The notes under the pieces were generated by a model. The model was not told the origin of the DNA. It searched no databases and worked only from the letters and a program-made list of their open reading frames with translations. DNA of 64,000 nt. It comes from an uncultured Solobacterium sp. GTDB lineage: Bacteria; Bacillota_I; Bacilli_A; Erysipelotrichales; Erysipelotrichaceae. How positions within the stretch are numbered: position 1 is the stretch's first letter; every line of letters starts with the position of its first letter. A program made the translations under genes and the position numbers. Positions 30,271 to 39,407 of the stretch are shown one piece after another. The stretch is from the NCBI GenBank assembly GCA_900546285.1, contig URCJ01000001.1:40590-104589 (forward strand), in the 5' to 3' direction.

Positions 30271-33189
30271 ATGTTTCCCATGAAAAAGAAAATTGGATTA
30301 GACATTGGTTCTACTACTATTAAGTGTGTTGTACTTGATGAAAATGACAAGATTATTTATTCAAGTTATAAGAGACATATGAGTCATATCTTAGAGAAGA
30401 GTATTGAACTTTTGACTTATATAAAAGATGAAATATATAAAGGTGATGAAGTTATTTTATCTATCAGTGGTTCGGCTGGCATGGGTTTAGCTGAAAATGC
30501 TGGTGTTAACTTTGTCCAAGAAGTATATGCGACTAGACTCACTTGTAAAAGATTGGCTAAGGATACAGATGTAGTCATTGAACTGGGTGGAGAGGATGCT
30601 AAAATCTTATTCTTAACAAATGGTGTTGAAGTTAGAATGAATGGTACTTGTGCTGGTGGTACTGGTGCTTTCATTGACCAAATGGCAACTTTATTAAAAT
30701 TAGATGCGGATACTATGGACAAGGAGGCTTTAAGGGCCCAGCGTACTTATACAATTGCTTCTAGATGTGGTGTCTTTGCCAAGAGTGATGTACAACCTTT
30801 AATTAATCAAGGCGCTAAACAAAGTGATATAGCAGCTAGTATTTATCAAGCCGTTGTTAATCAAACGATTGCTGGTTTAGCGCAAGGTAGACCAATAAAA
30901 GGTAATATCTTATATCTTGGTGGTCCTTTGACTTTCTCAAAATGTTTGAGAAATTCTTTTGACAAGACTTTAAATGTAAAGGGTAAGTGTCCAGAAAATT
31001 CTCTATTATATGTCGCATTAGGTGCTGCTTATTATAGTGATCAGGTTGTTGATTTAGATGATGTATTGAATAAATTAAAAGAATATTCAAGTGTTGCTAC
31101 TTATCAAAGTTTAGATTCTTTGTTTAAAGATGAGGAAGAATATAAGGAATTTAAAGATAGACACTCTAAGGATAGGGTAGAGGAAGTGTCTTTTGATGAC
31201 TATAAGGGTAATGTTCATATCGGTATTGATAGTGGTTCTACTACTATTAAGATGGTTGTGGTAGATGAAGATGATAATCTTCTTTATACTTGGTATCAAT
31301 CAAATGATGGTAGTCCTGTTAAACTAATTTGCGATCAATTGATTGAATTATATAAGAAGCATCCTAATATTAAGATAGCTAGTGTAACAAGTACTGGGTA
31401 TGGCGAGGAACTAATTAAGAATGCGATTCATGGTGATTTTGGGGTAGTTGAGACAGTTGCTCATTTTACAGCTGCTAAGCATTTCTTGCCTGATGTTGAT
31501 TTTATTATTGATATCGGTGGTCAGGATATGAAGTGTTTTAAGATTGAAAATGGTGCCATTTCCAATATCTTCTTAAATGAAGCATGTTCTAGTGGCTGTG
31601 GTTCTTTCTTACAAACTTTTGCTAGTGCCTTAGGTAGTGATGTAGAGTCTTTTGCCAAGCTAGGTTTGTTTGCGAAGCATCCGGTTGATTTAGGTAGTCG
31701 TTGTACTGTTTTTATGAATTCTTCAGTTAAACAAGCCCAAAAGGATGGTGCTTCTATTGAAGATATTTCAGCAGGTCTTGCGATATCTGTTGTTAAGAAT
31801 GCTTTATATAAGGTTATTAGATGTTCTAGTGCTAAGGATTTAGGTTCTAAGATTGTAGTACAGGGTGGCACTTTCTATAATGAACTAGTTTTAAGGGCTT
31901 TTGAAAAAGAAATGGGTGTTGATGTCATTAGACCCAATATTGCAGGTTTAATGGGTGCCTATGGTGCAGCTTTATATGGTAAGAAGCGTAGCAAGGGTAG
32001 AAGTAGTGCTATTTCTTTAAGTGAATTAGAAAACTTTGAACATAAGGTTAATTCTTTTAAGTGTCATGGTTGTGGTAATCATTGTCAATTAACTGTTAAT
32101 GTCTTTAATGATGGTAAGCGTTATATTTCTGGTAATCGTTGTGATAAGCCTTTAACTGGTAAGGATAATAATGATGAATATAATTTGTATGCTTATAAGT
32201 TAAGTTTGTTGAAAGAGTATATGGATGATAGGGGTGATGGTGATATTACAATTGGTTTACCATTATGTCTAAACATGTATGAATTGTTGCCTTTCTGGCA
32301 TAAGTTATTTAGAGAATTAGGTTTTAAGGTTATTACTTCACCATTTTCTACAAGGGCTATTTATCAAGAAGGTCAGGCTTCGATTCCAAGTGATACAGCA
32401 TGTTATCCAGCTAAACTAAGTCATGGTGCTATTTATGAACTATTAAAGGAAGATGTTGATTATATTTATTATCCTTGTCTTTCTTATAATGTGGATGAAC
32501 ATTTAGGCGATAATCATTATAATTGTCCGGTGGTTGCTTATTATCCTGAGGTATTAAGTGGCAATATTTTGGATAATCATATGATTTGTGACTTTGTGGA
32601 TATTTCTATTCGTGATGAGTTTAAAAAGCGTTTCCCTAGTATCTTAAAGAAGCATTTTAGTAACTTGGATGATAAGAAGATTAGGGAAGCTATTGTTAGT
32701 GCATATAAAGAATATGATGACCATATGAAATTATTGGCTATTAAGGCTGATGAGGTTATATCTATGGCTAAACAAAAGGGTAAGCATATTATTTGTTTGG
32801 CAGGTAGACCTTACCATGTTGATCCTGAGGTTAATCATGGTATTGATAAATTAATTACTAAGCTTGGTTGTGCTGTTGTTAGTGAGGATAGTTTGTCTAA
32901 TCATTATGAAAAGATTGATACACAGGTTTTAAACCAGTGGACTTATCATTCACGTCTGTATGCTTGTGCTAATTATTGTACTAAGGATGATGATATGGAT
33001 TTAGTGCAGCTTGTAAGTTTTGGCTGTGGTTTGGATGCAATTACAAGTGATGAGACAAGAGAGATTTTGAATGATCATGGTAAGTTGTATACTCAATTAA
33101 AGATTGATGAGATTTCTAATTTGGGTACTGTTAATATTCGTTTGAGAAGTTTGTTGGCGGCTATTGAAGAGAGAAGGGAGGATAAGTAA
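30271..33189 (+). CDS. Double BadF/BadG/BcrA/BcrD-type ATPase (acyl-CoA dehydratase activase-like) fused to a DUF2229-like domain
   Basis: Two ASKHA ATPase repeats, each beginning KIGLDIGSTTIKCVV / HIGIDSGSTTIKMVV, then a Cys-rich middle segment (CHGCGNHCQ). Confidence 0.7.
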   Translation: MFPMKKKIGLDIGSTTIKCVVLDENDKIIYSSYKRHMSHILEKSIELLTYIKDEIYKGDEVILSISGSAGMGLAENAGVNFVQEVYATRLTCKRLAKDTDVVIELGGEDAKILFLTNGVEVRMNGTCAGGTGAFIDQMATLLKLDADTMDKEALRAQRTYTIASRCGVFAKSDVQPLINQGAKQSDIAASIYQAVVNQTIAGLAQGRPIKGNILYLGGPLTFSKCLRNSFDKTLNVKGKCPENSLLYVALGAAYYSDQVVDLDDVLNKLKEYSSVATYQSLDSLFKDEEEYKEFKDRHSKDRVEEVSFDDYKGNVHIGIDSGSTTIKMVVVDEDDNLLYTWYQSNDGSPVKLICDQLIELYKKHPNIKIASVTSTGYGEELIKNAIHGDFGVVETVAHFTAAKHFLPDVDFIIDIGGQDMKCFKIENGAISNIFLNEACSSGCGSFLQTFASALGSDVESFAKLGLFAKHPVDLGSRCTVFMNSSVKQAQKDGASIEDISAGLAISVVKNALYKVIRCSSAKDLGSKIVVQGGTFYNELVLRAFEKEMGVDVIRPNIAGLMGAYGAALYGKKRSKGRSSAISLSELENFEHKVNSFKCHGCGNHCQLTVNVFNDGKRYISGNRCDKPLTGKDNNDEYNLYAYKLSLLKEYMDDRGDGDITIGLPLCLNMYELLPFWHKLFRELGFKVITSPFSTRAIYQEGQASIPSDTACYPAKLSHGAIYELLKEDVDYIYYPCLSYNVDEHLGDNHYNCPVVAYYPEVLSGNILDNHMICDFVDISIRDEFKKRFPSILKKHFSNLDDKKIREAIVSAYKEYDDHMKLLAIKADEVISMAKQKGKHIICLAGRPYHVDPEVNHGIDKLITKLGCAVVSEDSLSNHYEKIDTQVLNQWTYHSRLYACANYCTKDDDMDLVQLVSFGCGLDAITSDETREILNDHGKLYTQLKIDEISNLGTVNIRLRSLLAAIEERREDK

Positions 33190-34440
33190 ATGGAATATCT
33201 TACTCCTAATTTCACTAAAGAGATGATGAAGGATTATACTGTTTTGGTTCCTAATATGTGTGAGACTTCTTTTAAGCTTATTAAAAGCGCAATGGAATCA
33301 GAAGGGTATCATAGGGTTGAACTACTTGGTTCAGGTAGTAGTAATGTTACACAACTTGGACTAAAGTATGTTCATAATGATACTTGTTATCCAGCTTTGA
33401 TTGTTATTGGTCAATTTCTTGAGGCAATAGAGAGTGGTAAGTATGATTTGAATCATACAGCACTTTTGATTTCTCAATCTGGTGGTGGTTGTCGTGCTAG
33501 TAACTATATTAAGTTGTTAAGAAAGGCACTAGTTAGAAGTGGCCATAGTAATATTCCGGTAGCTAGTTTGAATGCGAATAGATTGGAAAAGGGTTCTATT
33601 ATGCCTTTAACGCCTAGAATGCTTCTAAAGATTTTAGCTGCAGTTGAATATGGGGATGAATTAGAGGCTTTAAAGAACCAAACTATAGCTTATGAGGTAG
33701 TTAAGGGTGAAAGTATGAATCACCTTAATATGTGGCTTAAAAAGCTTGATAGGGATATTAGAGAAAACAAGAATTATCTTCCTACTTCATATAAGAAGAT
33801 CTTTAATGAGATTGCCCAAGACTTTGCGACTATCGAATTAAATAAGACTCCTAAGGTTAAGGTTGGTGTTGTTGGTGAAATCTATGTTAAGTTTTCTCCA
33901 ACCGGTAATAATAATCTAATGGAATTTCTACAAAGTCAGGATTGTGAAGTTAATATGCCAGGTCTTATGGGTTATGTGGAATATTGTTGTGCTAACTGGG
34001 AAATGGACTATAAGAATTATGGCATGTCTCCTACTATGGGCAAGTTAGCTGGTTTGGCTTTAAAGAAACTAAATAAATATGGCAATATGATGTCTAAGGC
34101 TATGAAGGATTATGGTTTTAATGCCCCTTGTTCTTTCTATGATTTGATGAAAAAGCCTGATGGTATCTTAAATTTAGGTACTAAGATGGGTGAGGGCTGG
34201 TTATTAACTGCTGAGATGGTTGAATTAATTGAGAGTGGTTATGAGAATATCATTTGTGCTCAACCTTTTGGTTGTCTACCTAATCATATTTGTGGTAAGG
34301 GTGTTATTAATATCCTAAGGTCTAAGTTCCCTAATGCCAATATCACTCCTATTGATTATGATCCTAGTGCTACTAAGGTTAATCAAGAGAATAGAATCGA
34401 GTTGATGTTGGCGGTGGCAAAAGAAAATTTGAATAAATAA
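33190..34440 (+). CDS. 2-hydroxyglutaryl-CoA dehydratase D-component-like protein
   Basis: Starts 1 nt after the upstream stop; conserved Cys pattern typical of the HgdB-like partner of the activase family. Confidence 0.55.
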   Translation: MEYLTPNFTKEMMKDYTVLVPNMCETSFKLIKSAMESEGYHRVELLGSGSSNVTQLGLKYVHNDTCYPALIVIGQFLEAIESGKYDLNHTALLISQSGGGCRASNYIKLLRKALVRSGHSNIPVASLNANRLEKGSIMPLTPRMLLKILAAVEYGDELEALKNQTIAYEVVKGESMNHLNMWLKKLDRDIRENKNYLPTSYKKIFNEIAQDFATIELNKTPKVKVGVVGEIYVKFSPTGNNNLMEFLQSQDCEVNMPGLMGYVEYCCANWEMDYKNYGMSPTMGKLAGLALKKLNKYGNMMSKAMKDYGFNAPCSFYDLMKKPDGILNLGTKMGEGWLLTAEMVELIESGYENIICAQPFGCLPNHICGKGVINILRSKFPNANITPIDYDPSATKVNQENRIELMLAVAKENLNK

Positions 34441-34445
34441 AAGTA

Positions 34446-34466
34446 AGAAGGCATTTTGCCTTCTTA
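34446..34466. terminator. Bidirectional terminator between convergent genes
   Basis: AAGAAGGCA-ttt-TGCCTTCTT makes a perfect 9-bp stem. Confidence 0.5.
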
Positions 34467-34664
34467 TTCAATTTCTACATCTTCCATTTCATCCAAGCCA
34501 GCTTGAGTAATACCAAGTAGTTTCATCTTTTCTTCATGAGATATGGTCTTACTTAAGTCAGCATTTTCCATTCTTTTGATAGCTTCTGCTAATAATTCTT
34601 CATCTATTAATTCATCATCATTTAAAAAAGTATCTTTCATATCTCTGTTGTGTGAACCACCCAT
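34464..34664 (-). CDS. Small acidic protein of unknown function (true start probably the Met at 34640)
   Basis: The first 8 codons of the track ORF overlap the IS end hairpin. MKDTFLNDDELIDEELLAEAIKRMEN... is an acidic helical peptide. Confidence 0.3.
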   Translation of the reverse strand: MGGSHNRDMKDTFLNDDELIDEELLAEAIKRMENADLSKTISHEEKMKLLGITQAGLDEMEDVEIE

Positions 34665-34665
34665 A

Positions 34666-34830
34666 AGCTAAAGATTTATGGGCTTTGTATAGATAACATG
34701 TTATCTATTTTTAAGAAGTTTGATATTCTATCATTAGATAGAACCTTTCGTACTTAATTTTATTAAGCAATCCTTATTCTTACAGGCGTGTCCACTTCGC
34801 CTCTATGGTATAAGACACTAAGGTCTACAA
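34666..34830 (-). ncRNA. Putative TnpB-associated omega (right-end) RNA scaffold region
   Basis: Placed by position: the 3' end of tnpB plus the right-end hairpins (GATAACATGTTATC palindrome and the CCCATAAG...CTTATGGG hairpin). By analogy with ISDra2/IS605 TnpB omega RNAs; not demonstrated. Confidence 0.3.
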
Positions 34831-36022
34831 CTTTACTTTTATTAAGTATATTTAATGCACCATTTATATCTGCGTTAATTAATTTATTTGTTCTTGTTTG
34901 ATATAACCCACGTTTAATACGGTTACCACTAAAATTATACACTTTAGGATTATCATCATTATAGATAGGTATAACATCTTTATCAAAGAAACTAGCTTTG
35001 GATGTATAAGATTCTTCTTGTTTTACAAAATTAATACCATATAACTTACATAGATATTCTAGTTTATCTCTTAATTTTCCATATGGAATATTAAGAAATG
35101 TTTGATTGTTTCTTTTTCCTAGCTTAACGTCTTTTTGAAATGTTTCATTATAGCCAACTACAATATTACCAATATCATTATCTAAACAATAATCAATAAT
35201 CTTACGTACTGTTTTATTCATATAATCGTTAACTTTATTATTACGATCCTTAAGATTACTGTTTTGTCTTTTAGTATATTTAACTTTAATATCTTGCTTA
35301 TCTTTGATACTTTGTAAATAAGCGTTTCTTTTATTGAACCATTGGTTAATAGATTTAAGCCTTCTTCCATCAATAATGAATGACTCGCCAGTGTTTGTTA
35401 CACAAGTGCATAGATTGTTGATACCAAGATCTATAGCTAGTGCTTTGTTTTTATTTAAATTACTTTGAGTTTCTTTAACTTCATATGTATATTGAACTTC
35501 AAAGAACCTAGCATTAGATTTAGGAATAATTCTAATCTCTTTAATCTTCTTATCTTTTAATATTGGCGGTATCTTAACACTAATAGAATTGTGTTTCTTT
35601 TTATAAGCATTAGAATAAGGCACTATTAATACATTATCTTTAATTCTTACAAAACCAATTACTAAAGTAGTAAAACCATCTTTCTTTAAATAATGTGGTA
35701 ATTTAATATCTTTAAAATTATATTTACCTTTTTTAGCTAACTTAAGTAAACCGAAGAAAGCTTTAAAAGACCCATCAACTTCTTTAAGTATTTGTTGAGC
35801 CATATTTGAATTAAGCATTTTATAGTTATCACTATCTTTTAATAAGGCATAGTTCTTTTCGTAATTAAGATATTCGCCTTCATTAAAATAATATTGTCTT
35901 ACATTATAAATAGCTTCATTGCTTAGATTTTTTGCAATATGACTTAATTCTTTTAGACTTAAATATTCTTCTTTGGTCAAATGTTTTAAGACTTGTTTAA
36001 CAGTAAGATACATTATTTTCAA
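34763..36022 (-). CDS. tnpB: TnpB (OrfB_IS605) RuvC-like RNA-guided nuclease homologue, lacking the zinc-finger cysteines
   Basis: 419 aa. RuvC-I (ALAIDLGINNLC), RuvC-II (VKQEESYTSK) and RuvC-III (INADINGALNI) are present. The segment between RuvC-II and III (ASFFDKDVIPIYNDDNPKVYNFSGNRIKRGLY) has no CxxC pairs. Confidence 0.85.
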   Translation of the reverse strand: MKIMYLTVKQVLKHLTKEEYLSLKELSHIAKNLSNEAIYNVRQYYFNEGEYLNYEKNYALLKDSDNYKMLNSNMAQQILKEVDGSFKAFFGLLKLAKKGKYNFKDIKLPHYLKKDGFTTLVIGFVRIKDNVLIVPYSNAYKKKHNSISVKIPPILKDKKIKEIRIIPKSNARFFEVQYTYEVKETQSNLNKNKALAIDLGINNLCTCVTNTGESFIIDGRRLKSINQWFNKRNAYLQSIKDKQDIKVKYTKRQNSNLKDRNNKVNDYMNKTVRKIIDYCLDNDIGNIVVGYNETFQKDVKLGKRNNQTFLNIPYGKLRDKLEYLCKLYGINFVKQEESYTSKASFFDKDVIPIYNDDNPKVYNFSGNRIKRGLYQTRTNKLINADINGALNILNKSKVVDLSVLYHRGEVDTPVRIRIA

Positions 36023-36151
36023 CCTCCTTTTCCTATTATAATTATATCATATTTTACTAGATTTATTATTATTCAGTAAACCATAATAATTTTATGAATA
36101 ATTATATTTCAAGAAATCATTCAAAACATTATTTAAAAGTCCATTTAATAT

Positions 36152-36480
36152 TTGTGTGCAAGTACAAAAAAGAAGTTATTAATTAATAATTTTGACAATA
36201 TTGTTAAGAATGTTATTCTAGAAATATCCTATAGAAGTAATTTTAATATTGAAACATTAGAAACGGACGAAAATCATATCCATATGTTAATATCGTATCC
36301 ACCAAAATTATCAGTTACATCAATAGTCAGGAAATTGAAACAAGAATCTACCATTTACTTATGGAAAAATTACTCTAAGTTTTTATCTAAACATTTTTGG
36401 AAAGAACATACTTTTTAAAGTGATGGATATTTTGCTTGTTCCATAGGTGAAGCAAACCCAGAAACTATCAACCGCTATAT
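36152..36480 (+). pseudogene. tnpA: tnpA (IS200-type HUH transposase) remnant, N-terminally truncated and frameshifted
   Basis: HUH motif region ENHIHMLISYPPKLSVTSIVRKLK is present. The N-terminal ~50 aa are missing; a stop follows FWKEHTF and the C-terminal SDGYFACSIGEANPETINRYIESQ continues in another frame. Confidence 0.55.
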
Positions 36481-36549
36481 AGAAAGTCAATGTTAATGCA
36501 TTCATATCATAAGCTAAAGACTTATGAGTTTTCTGCATAAATTTATATA

Positions 36550-36580
36550 ATAAAAAAAGAAACTGTTACACCAACAGTTC
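36550..36580 (-). terminator. Rho-independent terminator of the flavodoxin gene
   Basis: AACTGTT-acacc-AACAGTT stem, followed on the minus strand by TCTTTTTTT. Confidence 0.45.
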
Positions 36581-36618
36581 CTTCTTTCATACTATATGGG
36601 GAAAGTATATATAGAAAG

Positions 36619-37041
36619 TTAGATATTAGCTAACTGACTACCAATTTGTTTAAGATCACAAGTGGCCTTATCATCTGGTGATAATCTTGTGATATAGCCC
36701 TTATCGTTTAAGATGATGGCACCATGATCTTTTAGACGGTTTTCTAAGTCTGACATCCATTTGCCGTTGCCCCAGTCATAAGATCCAAATAGGGCGATTG
36801 TTTTTCCTTTGCAGTCTTTTTCTATTTCATTTACAAAGTCATCCATTTCAGAGTCTAATTCCTCATCGCCCATGGCACTAGCGCCTAGGGCAAACACTTG
36901 TTCATTTTTTAAATCTTCAGCAATTATACTGTTAACATTTGTAACATTAACTTCTTTTCCACTTTCTTTAACACCTTCGCCGATAGCTTCTGCCATCATT
37001 TGAGTGTTGCCTGATAATGTCCAATAAATAATATTAATCAT
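36619..37041 (-). CDS. Short-chain flavodoxin
   Basis: MINIIYWTLSGNTQMMAEAI (FMN phosphate-binding loop); 140 aa. Confidence 0.85.
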   Translation of the reverse strand: MINIIYWTLSGNTQMMAEAIGEGVKESGKEVNVTNVNSIIAEDLKNEQVFALGASAMGDEELDSEMDDFVNEIEKDCKGKTIALFGSYDWGNGKWMSDLENRLKDHGAIILNDKGYITRLSPDDKATCDLKQIGSQLANI

Positions 37042-37613
37042 ATAGCTCCTTCTATAATTTCATTTAAGCGATAGCCGCTTAGCAATTGTTTCAATGAAGT
37101 TTCTAAGGCTTTATCGAATTCTTTAAATACTTTAAGTGTTTCATTAAGGTTGGAATAGACTTTCCAATATTTACATGCCAGATAATTTTGTCCTTGATTT
37201 TCAATAAAGCCTTTGATGTCTTCGATAGGATAATTTAAGATGATTCCAAGCTCGTGAGGAAATGCAGTTTTCTTTAGATAAAAACTACTGAAACGTTTTG
37301 TGAGCTTGTTTAATACATAATTAAGGTCACATCTTTTATATCCTAGTTCTTTAAGATAAGTTTTCACTTCATCTTTAAATAGATACTCTTTTAAATTAGC
37401 TTCTCGATATATTAAGATAATTTCGTTTTTATTATTCTTATGCAATAGGTGAATAGACAAGGGGCTATTATCTAATACATTAAGAAGATAATTGTAAGTA
37501 CCTTTCTTACCAGTTATGGTATTAGCTATAGTTAGTCCTTTGATTACTGGGGCACAGGTGTTTATGAATGAATAGTTTAGTTTTTCTTTTGACATATTAC
37601 CTCCAGTTAGCAA
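37038..37613 (-). CDS. Conserved hypothetical protein (possibly DUF3793-like)
   Basis: 191 aa; FPHELGIILNYPIEDIKGFI resembles a motif I associate with DUF3793 (from memory, unverified). Confidence 0.35.
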   Translation of the reverse strand: MLTGGNMSKEKLNYSFINTCAPVIKGLTIANTITGKKGTYNYLLNVLDNSPLSIHLLHKNNKNEIILIYREANLKEYLFKDEVKTYLKELGYKRCDLNYVLNKLTKRFSSFYLKKTAFPHELGIILNYPIEDIKGFIENQGQNYLACKYWKVYSNLNETLKVFKEFDKALETSLKQLLSGYRLNEIIEGAI

Positions 37614-37680
37614 TAACTAACTATGTATATAGGTTAGCACATGCTAACTAATAATGCAAGAAAAAGATGAACAATTAAGT

Positions 37681-38949
37681 TCATCTCTTATACTTACACT
37701 TTCCCGCAACAAATGTTTGAACAGTTCTACCATAGACATTCATACCAATAAAAGGTGAGTTATGGCTCTTTGACTTAAAGTCTTCTTCTTTTATTTCATA
37801 TTCATTTGTTACATCAAATAGCGCAATATCTGCAACACTTCCTACTTTTAAAGTACCACGGTTTATATCCAATATCTCTGCACCCTTAGTTGACATCTTA
37901 TTTATTAGTTCAAGCGGTGTAAGAATGCCTGTTTTTACAAGATATGTATAAGACAAGGCAAATGATGTTTCAATGCCTACAATACCATTTAAGGCTTTCT
38001 CGATAGGTTTAGACTTTTCTTCTTTACTATGAGGTGCATGGTCAGTAGCGATTACATCAATTGTGCCGTTTCTTAAGGCTTCTTTAACAGCTTCAACATC
38101 TTCTTTACTACGAAGAGGTGGGTTCATTTTCTTGTTAGGATCACCATTTACATCATCTTTATTAAAGATAAAGTAGTGAGGTCCTGTTTCACAAGTTACC
38201 TTAATTCCTCTTTCTTTAGCGGTCTTAATAATGTCTAGGCTATTTTTAGTACTTATATGACATAGGTGTATTCTTGCGTTGGCTTCATTAGCTAACATGA
38301 TGTCTCTTGCGACAATCAATTCTTCGCCAACGCTAGTAGAAGCAAGTGAATCATCTTCAGTATGTGAGAATACTTGTAGATTTAATTCTTTAGCTTCTTT
38401 AATACCTTCTAACATCACCTTAGAATTCATTACTGAGCGACCATCTTCACTGATAGCGCAAATACCCTTACCGTTAATCTTTTTAGTAATGGTGTCAACT
38501 TCCATCATCTTTTGAAAGTCACATAGTTCTTCACCCTTTTGACCCTTAGTGATAGCGGCGATAGTTAATACGTTGATTAGATTAGCTTCTTTTGCCTTCT
38601 TATCAACATATTCTAATGTTTCTACACTATCAATTACAGGCTTAGTATTAGGCATCATACATACAGTAGTAAAGCCACCGTGTATAGCAGCTTCAGAGCC
38701 ACTTTTAATGTCTTCTTTATACTCTAGTCCTGGTTCTCTAAAGTGAACATGTAGGTCGATTAAACCTGGTGTTACCCATAGACCCTTGGCGTTAATTGTT
38801 TCAGCTTTTTCAAAGTCTTTAGCTTCTCCTAATGTCTTGTCAGCTAATTCAATCATGACAATCTTGTCATCATCAAGATATAAACTACCTTCTTCACATA
38901 GGTTTTGACTAGGGTCGATGATTAAACCGTTTTTAATAATCTTTTTCAT
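37681..38949 (-). CDS. pyrC: Dihydroorotase
   Basis: Metal-binding DLHVHFREPG and DHAPH; 422 aa. Confidence 0.9.
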   Translation of the reverse strand: MKKIIKNGLIIDPSQNLCEEGSLYLDDDKIVMIELADKTLGEAKDFEKAETINAKGLWVTPGLIDLHVHFREPGLEYKEDIKSGSEAAIHGGFTTVCMMPNTKPVIDSVETLEYVDKKAKEANLINVLTIAAITKGQKGEELCDFQKMMEVDTITKKINGKGICAISEDGRSVMNSKVMLEGIKEAKELNLQVFSHTEDDSLASTSVGEELIVARDIMLANEANARIHLCHISTKNSLDIIKTAKERGIKVTCETGPHYFIFNKDDVNGDPNKKMNPPLRSKEDVEAVKEALRNGTIDVIATDHAPHSKEEKSKPIEKALNGIVGIETSFALSYTYLVKTGILTPLELINKMSTKGAEILDINRGTLKVGSVADIALFDVTNEYEIKEEDFKSKSHNSPFIGMNVYGRTVQTFVAGKCKYKR

Positions 38950-39407
38950 TATTTTTTGTTAAATGAAACAATCTCATCGCAGTATTCACAACGATATTCT
39001 CTTGTTTCAGGGTTGATTAAATGGAAGATATGAGGGATGCCACTTTCTACAGAAGTAACACATCTTGGGTTCTTGCACTTAATAACGTTTGTTACTGTTT
39101 CAGGTAAAGATAATTTAATCTTTTCAGCAATCTTACCATCTTTGATGATATTAACAGTAGCATTTGGGTCAATTAGACCAAGTACAGTTAAGTCAACGTC
39201 AGTAACGTTTTGAATCTTGATGATATCTTTTTTACCATGTTTTTGGCTTTGAGCGTTCATGATAAAGGCGATAGTGTTTTCGCTTGTGTCAATATTTAGG
39301 TATTCTAGAATTTGAGCACCTAAGCCTGCAGTGATATGGTCAATTACGATTCCGTTTTCAATACTAGTTACAATCATTTTTAGCCTCCTATTAACCTTCA
39401 ATTCCAA
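38949..39407 (-). CDS. pyrI: Aspartate carbamoyltransferase regulatory subunit
   Basis: 152 aa; C-terminal Zn domain CKNPRC...CEYCD. Confidence 0.85.

Follow-up and report, generated by a model that had tools for sequence, protein, structure and literature searches.

A TnpB without zinc-finger cysteines, and with a putatively shifted catalytic glutamate, in a non-autonomous IS200/IS605 element of an uncultured Solobacterium

Introduction

What becomes of an RNA-guided nuclease when the cysteines of its zinc finger are gone? The question is raised by a tnpB gene in a 64,000-nucleotide stretch of DNA from an uncultured Solobacterium sp. (contig URCJ01000001.1, positions 40,590 to 104,589 of the forward strand), here called the window. 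A sequence-only reading had taken the open reading frame (ORF) at 34763-36022 for a TnpB homologue with an intact RuvC triad and no zinc-finger cysteines, and had proposed either a minimal nuclease variant or a derivative repurposed for regulation. Our answer, held as probable, is that 34652-36546 is a non-autonomous insertion sequence (IS) of the IS200/IS605 family with a decayed tnpA, an intact tnpB and its omega-RNA, and that its finger-less, shifted-glutamate TnpB serves as an RNA-guided nuclease. This lineage and its loss of the finger are already in the literature, and the window protein is an ordinary member. Coordinates are those of the 64-kb window, and residue numbers throughout are those of the 416-amino acid (aa) form of the protein.

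The TnpB protein

The gene is placed as follows.

34763..36013, minus strand: tnpB coding sequence (CDS), 416 aa plus stop, supported by hidden Markov model matches, an AlphaFold2 (AF2) model and Foldseek

The ORF listing has it at 34763..36022 (minus strand), with 419 aa counted from a TTG at 36022. The ORF claimed by the sequence-only reading does exist and does encode a TnpB homologue, with its start refined to 36013. That ATG, rather than the TTG, is almost certainly the true start, because a ribosome-binding site (RBS), AAAGGAGG, lies at 36030-36023 and because the lengths and starts of homologues agree with it: near homologues are nearly all 416 aa, start with MYLTVKQ and cover 100% of the 416-aa form.

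The protein matches Pfam OrfB_IS605 (PF01385; 2.6e-29, 102.3 bits against a cut-off of 30.5), Pfam Cas12f1-like_TNB (PF07282; 3.2e-9, 37.3 bits against 26.3) and NCBIfam guided_TnpB (NF040570; 2.2e-57, 195.1 bits against 100), the last over model positions 5-389 of 389. The AF2 model of the 416-aa form has a predicted local distance difference test (pLDDT) score of 96.5 and a predicted template modelling (TM) score, pTM, of 0.90. Foldseek aligns it with AsCas12f, ISFba1 TnpB, ISDra2 TnpB and Fanzor2 at TM 0.62-0.67 and probability 1.00, and model and matches together display the WED-REC-RuvC-TNB fold of TnpB. A PDB search with the single sequence gave no TnpB match, while a profile-based PDB search did find matches; among the solved structures of the PDB copy searched, the nearest reach ~14-20% identity and none is closer than ~20%. 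By sequence, fold, RNA and transposon context the ORF product is a TnpB.

RuvC catalytic residues

Residue conservation was read from a main protein alignment of the query and 110 full-length representatives of 50%-identity clusters (n = 111), 35-56% identical to the query, and from a second, independent alignment (A1) of 85 sequences. Four codons, scored in the main alignment, are at issue.

35429..35431, minus strand: codon of D195, the RuvC-I aspartate in 'AIDLGINN'; D in 110/111
35153..35155, minus strand: codon of G287, at the canonical RuvC-II glutamate position in 'IVVGYNE'; G in 111/111
35012..35014, minus strand: codon of E334, the putative C-terminally shifted catalytic glutamate in 'QEESYTSK'; E in 110/111
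34868..34870, minus strand: codon of D382, the RuvC-III aspartate in 'NADING' (NADXN type); D in 110/111

D195 and D382 sit in canonical RuvC motifs, and conserved acidic residues had rightly been claimed. The glutamate, however, is not the canonical one, whose place is taken by Gly287; the nearby E290 is kept in only 9/111 sequences. An invariant glutamate is found instead at the position used by rearranged clades, 47 residues downstream of G287; the sequence-only reading had missed this shift. D195, G287, E334, S338, R365 and D382 are all invariant in alignment A1. In the profile-to-PDB alignment G287 falls opposite the catalytic glutamate of AsCas12f 'IQMEDL', and 'YTSK' opposite 'YTSQ'. 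In the AF2 model G287 ends strand 281-287 and E334 directly follows strand 328-332.

Relatives that still bear a finger have six residues between the shifted glutamate and the first cysteine (E-S-Y-T-S-x-T-C). The window protein has the same layout, with a non-acidic glycine at the canonical RuvC-II site and a conserved glutamate with six residues between it and the position of the first cysteine. From alignments and model we infer that this lineage has relocated its RuvC-II glutamate: Gly287 now holds the former place on strand beta-4, and E334, immediately past beta-5, would be the catalytic glutamate.

Zinc-finger segment

34871..35011, minus strand: TNB-like segment without zinc ligands, residues 335-381; Pfam TNB match, pLDDT 91-97

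The absence of zinc-finger cysteines is confirmed. Cysteines occur only at positions 202, 204, 276 and 322, and residues 323-416 hold none, and a histidine only at 403. The segment quoted for the claim is indeed without Cys, but runs to 46 residues (A340-G385) and not 45. No zinc finger is hidden in the other two frames of the 323-416 stretch, both of which are full of stops, as the sequence-only reading had held.

The equivalent of residues 335-381 is free of CxxC in 107 of the 111 aligned full-length sequences, and since so many share it the absence is not due to chance. Over the wider stretch 330-386, 54 of the aligned sequences have no Cys and 43 have one, mostly in 'TSKCSF'. Four relatives (P0199, P0243, P0244, P0252) retain the C4 finger together with the same shifted glutamate, in the frame [SA]YTS[QRK]TCxxCG...NRxxRGLYxCxxC...NA, and the layout EESYTS...NR..RGLY...NAD is common to both kinds. 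Loss of the finger is, on this comparison of sequences, a trait of the lineage.

By alignment, Cys1 of the finger corresponds to S341 and the second CxxC knuckle to 'TRTN'. In place of the first knuckle there is a loop with a ~14-residue insertion, 'SFFDKDVIPIYNDDNPK', whose consensus is acidic/hydrophobic (~14 residues, S-F-x-D-x-[DE]-x-I-P-x-Y). The hairpin between the knuckles, 'SGNRIKRGLY', is kept and aligns with 'SGNRIGQAIF' of AsCas12f: R365 is invariant, and R368 and G369 are present in at least 90%. The Cas12f arginine aligned with R365 is required for cleavage. Structure prediction, suggested earlier as a way to see what replaces the finger, gives a confident loop (pLDDT 91-97) without regular secondary structure. 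The segment measures 35 aa in finger-bearing relatives against 39-66 aa (median 46) in finger-less ones and 47 aa in the query; at that length, in a protein of 416 aa, the proposal of a 'minimal' variant does not hold. The TNB domain of this TnpB, to judge from its residues, probably does not bind zinc.

Position 346 (34976-34978, minus strand) is acidic (D/E) in 107/107 finger-less sequences, and residue 344 (D344 here) is mostly Asp. The acidic residue could form a salt bridge to R365/R368 or serve as an extra metal ligand.

A crude neighbour-joining tree points to two finger-less subtypes, a short one (39-41 aa, with a vestigial Cys) and a long one (~46 aa) that includes the window protein, and places the finger-bearing forms nearest the short subtype. 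The short subtype ('TSKCSFLDMEE...YKGKRIKRGLF') occurs in Geobacillus stearothermophilus (P0341, P0354), where it is multi-copy (11-16 contigs), and on an Anoxybacillus amylolyticus plasmid (L094, 541-1758).

omega-RNA and guide

34652..34862, minus strand: omega-RNA scaffold, to the right end '...GGGTGGTTCAC'; 5′ limit approximate; overlaps the last ~100 nt of tnpB
34632..34651, minus strand: putative guide ACAACAGAGATATGAAAGAT, host flank directly 3′ of the right end; length assumed

In ~70 loci a conserved architecture 3′ of tnpB stops sharply at GTTCA[C/G], 57-130 nt past the stop codon, and the flanks beyond are unrelated. For structure, 40 diverse loci were aligned (alignment A2) and folded with RNAalifold, which gave 31 pairs, 20 of them with compensatory double changes; some stems lie inside the CDS and one spans the stop codon. 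Standard pairs form in 95.0% of the A2 cells, against 79% in column shuffles and 37-46% with slid partners. The covariation score is 0.496, against 0.19 in shuffles (0/500 reach the observed value) and about 0.1 when slid. The stems are intact in the window copy. The locus has, then, the structured omega-RNA expected of a TnpB, overlapping the 3′ end of tnpB, stopping at the right end and followed by variable flank. A Rfam scan of 34300-36800 gave sub-threshold chance matches only and no curated omega-RNA family. The putative guide sequence occurs once in the window.

A long-range contact of four pairs is predicted between GAAU, just upstream of the stop codon, and the terminal GUUC beside the guide junction (A2 columns 87-90 with 316-319; window about 34779-34776 with 34657-34654). 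Covariation speaks neither for nor against it, since it is nearly invariant in the 40 loci. Known omega-RNAs have a pseudoknot beside the guide that it resembles.

Element ends and transposase remnant

36547..36550, minus strand: TTAT, the putative transposon-adjacent motif (TAM), adjoining the left end; TTAT/TTTAT in many copies
36508..36546, minus strand: left end, including the hairpin CATAAGTCTTTAGCTTATG (36526-36508); matches the right-end hairpin region at 88% identity over 25 nt
36094..36496, plus strand: decayed Y1 (IS200-type) tnpA, divergent from tnpB; Y1_Tnp match, three-frame translation
34660..34682, minus strand: right-end subterminal hairpin CCCATAAATCTTTAGCTTATGGG, also the last omega-RNA stem (helix 7, 8/9 pairs covary)

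Read along the minus strand, TTAT is followed by the left end, the divergent tnpA remnant, tnpB and the right end. The element is 1.9 kb long: similarity to two copies that are at least 94% identical (L001, L085) stops at 36550 and at 34652/34651, and the right-end terminal sequence TGGTTCAC stops at 34652. TTAT is likely the TAM, as TTAT/TTTAT abuts the left end not only in the window, L001 and L085 but also in multi-copy Catenibacterium, Leptotrichia, Eubacterium cellulosolvens and Fusobacterium loci. A Y1 gene remnant, hairpins at both ends and TTAT/TTTAT 5′ of the left end mark the element as IS200/IS605.

The tnpA remnant is recognized through an 88-aa piece (Pfam Y1_Tnp, 2e-18; NCBIfam transpos_IS200, 7.2e-18). 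Its reading frame is broken by a frameshift after 'CKYKK' and closed by an in-frame TAA at 36416-36418, before the catalytic 'SDGYF'. The element is non-autonomous because its transposase gene is a pseudogene. In L001 tnpA (403-615) has an N-terminal deletion and in L085 (about 1990-2440) an internal deletion and a stop, with tnpB intact. Since the lesions differ among the closest copies, tnpA has decayed on several independent occasions, with tnpB kept. In 78/80 genome loci compared, tnpA is absent within 3 kb of tnpB, and tnpB elements without tnpA are the usual situation.

Abundance, mobility and selection

A homologue search at 90% clustering brought all 8,000/8,000 scored candidates in at E <= 1e-5, and 5,275 clusters at 50% identity have E <= 1e-3. 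At 75-79% identity the search reached Peptacetobacter, Paenibacillus larvae, C. perfringens, C. difficile and Pseudobutyrivibrio. Loci were found in Lachnospiraceae, Peptostreptococcus, Fusobacterium, Leptotrichia, Catenibacterium and others, frequently as several copies with different flanks. This is a very abundant TnpB lineage of Firmicutes and Fusobacteria. The earlier caveat that the clade might be a well-described finger-less group proves partly right, as the family is huge and large finger-less TnpB branches were noted in 2023 (Altae-Tran et al.).

Copies at least 94% identical occupy three different genomic sites: the window site, one adjoining rplK/rplA (P0001, 97% identical) and a third (L001). 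A megablast search against plasmids gave one distant match only. The ratio of nonsynonymous to synonymous substitution rates (dN/dS) for tnpB is 0.11 against the two closest copies and, over the whole gene, about 0.07-0.18 against more distant ones; tnpB is under purifying selection.

Comparison with known systems

AsCas12f, which acts as a dimer, is the best structural and profile match. It shares the 'SGNRI' hairpin, and R365 aligns with R393 of its chain (PDB 8J12, 7WJU). Unlike the window TnpB, it is CRISPR-associated, keeps the canonical glutamate in 'IQMEDL' and has both CxxC pairs. ISDra2 TnpB (PDB 8H1J, 8EXA) is alike in overall fold (TM 0.56-0.64 normalized to the query, at ~15% identity), in an omega-RNA that overlaps both the tnpB 3′ end and the right end, and in its IS200/IS605 element with a T-rich TAM. 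It differs in its triad D191/E278/D361 with a canonical glutamate, its CCCC finger (C331, C334, C351, C354) and its DRDXN-type RuvC-III.

Closer parallels exist for the rearranged triad. In RIIr-5 TnpBs the RuvC-II glutamate is replaced by glycine, offset by an alternative glutamate on beta-5 instead of beta-4 (PMC10691335), and a large bacterial clade described by Yoon et al. (2023) has a shifted glutamate six residues from the finger and lacks the DPG motif of Fanzors. Like these and 'TnpB2', the window protein has glycine at the canonical site, an invariant glutamate ~47 residues on, just before [ST][ST], and a D-hydrophobic-G RuvC-I (DLG here, not DPG); like the RIIr-5 and 'TnpB2' lineages, it is transposon-borne, mobile and associated with a Y1 TnpA. 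Its residue pattern fits it among such shifted-glutamate lineages (RIIr-5-like, 'TnpB2'). It differs from the RIIr major clades in that their consensus is described as keeping the C4 finger, missing here from 107/111. Cryo-electron microscopy of Fanzor2 places Glu467 shifted ~50 residues C-terminal (PMC11832414). ApmFz2 (PDB 9B0L), a structural match at TM 0.62, shares this displacement, but Fanzor2 is eukaryotic/viral and has the DPG motif, an N-terminal extension and a retained zinc finger.

In the census of Altae-Tran et al. (2023) the C4 finger is typical of TnpB, not universal, its loss is noted in large branches, and its function is called unclear. RIIIr-4, the major clade reported as finger-less, resembles the window TnpB in lacking the C4 finger; its RuvC-III Asp is changed to His, and it includes MazE/RHH-linked members. 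Membership of RIIIr-4 is ruled out by the intact D382, RuvC-II being the rearranged part here. TldRs are likewise TnpB-derived and have lost zinc-finger features. They differ in their mutated RuvC residues, often truncated C-terminus, lack of transposon ends and conserved host promoter targets, and this nuclease-dead class was rejected on the acidic residues, full C-terminus, transposon ends and variable flanks of the present family.

Among characterized proteins, the two G. stearothermophilus sequences have their RuvC-I Asp at 192, not 196, and their listed accessions do not include the published GstTnpB ones. The Anoxybacillus homologue has 405 aa, against 369 aa for ISAam1 TnpB. The short finger-less subtype may coincide in part with the ISGst elements of Meers et al. 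A literature search of incomplete coverage turned up no paper on the structure or biochemistry of TnpBs that combine finger loss with a shifted glutamate, and peptide motifs of the family were unmatched in full text.

Host neighbourhood

The IS lies in an intergenic gap, immediately past the terminator of a flavodoxin gene. The host genes on that side (36619-39407, minus strand) carry the Pfam labels flavodoxin, DUF3793, dihydroorotase and PyrI; the other side (30271-34440, plus strand) has a 972-aa ORF and a 416-aa ORF. Next to the right end is a 66-aa ORF (34464-34664, minus strand) whose opening codons (MGGSHNRD...) fall within the IS; the ATG at 34640 (MKDTFLNDDE...) is probably its native start. 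Pfam and NCBIfam give no match for this ORF, which is annotated as a gene in independent metagenome contigs. The putative omega-RNA guide overlaps the RBS and start codon of the ORF.

Alternative explanations

An active RNA-guided nuclease, not a regulator, is the most likely role of the window TnpB, and several points weigh against this. No link was found from characterized TnpBs (GstTnpB1-4, ISAam1) to the cysteine-free lineage. The 64-kb window holds no further copy of the element; copies at least 94% identical were found at other sites. The exact window protein occurs only at the same site, beside the flavodoxin gene and the 66-aa ORF (three places shown of four contigs), and because identical proteins share one site and tnpA is dead this copy may no longer move. 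The segment replacing the finger evolves somewhat faster than the rest (dN/dS 0.05-0.6 against the more distant copies, the 0.6 in one comparison), yet below 1. A stranded relic, immobile with its dead tnpA and with a functionless tnpB that has just not degraded yet, would agree with the frameshift and stop codon in tnpA, the lone copy in the window and the restriction of identical proteins to one site. It is nonetheless unlikely, since the tnpB ORF is intact and constrained (dN/dS 0.11 against the two closest copies), the omega-RNA stems are preserved in this very copy, tnpA-less loci are the rule (78/80) with mobilization in trans possible, and retention by homing requires TnpB and its RNA only.

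Repurposing for regulation would make the protein a domesticated one without nuclease activity, an RNA-guided DNA binder or transcriptional regulator similar to TldR or Cas12k, in which finger loss marks the loss of cleavage. TldRs often lack the C-terminal zinc-finger/RuvC part, the canonical RuvC-II glutamate is absent here, and the window copy is fixed at one site next to a small ORF, with its putative guide lying across the start of that ORF. Against these stand D195, E334 and D382, each kept in 110/111, a full-length C-terminus with RuvC-III, and the presence of transposon ends and TAM; flanks past the right end differ at every locus and do not converge on one host target, close to identical copies sit at different sites, and the neighbourhoods share no conserved partner gene. 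We regard this proposal as very improbable. That the missing finger is an artefact of sequencing error, frameshift or misjudged alignment has next to no probability: nothing was found for it, the other frames are closed, the identical protein recurs in independent assemblies, and the same cysteine-free segment is seen in 107/111 aligned sequences. A further possibility concerns the segment itself, that the cysteine-free TNB is a truly zinc-independent solution with functional consequences and so a distinct structural class of compact RNA-guided nuclease. This we hold to be doubtful; if true, substrate loading, cleavage pattern or collateral activity might be altered, and the protein might be robust to metal limitation in anaerobic gut bacteria.

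Mechanism and significance

As a transposon-borne RNA-guided nuclease, the window TnpB would work as follows. Transcription would start in the 3′ part of tnpB and pass the right end, giving an omega-RNA with ~16-20 nt of flank as guide. At the donor site left empty by excision the TnpB-RNA complex would recognize TTAT together with the sequence matching the guide; D195/E334/D382 would cut there, and recombination would restore the element.

For the host genome this is of little consequence, adding one more IS605-type element. For the family it means that the C4 finger, often treated as a hallmark of TnpB, is dispensable in an abundant, mobile lineage under purifying selection, in which the arginine hairpin and the shifted glutamate are kept. 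The window TnpB is a pointer to an under-studied structural variant, of modest general interest.

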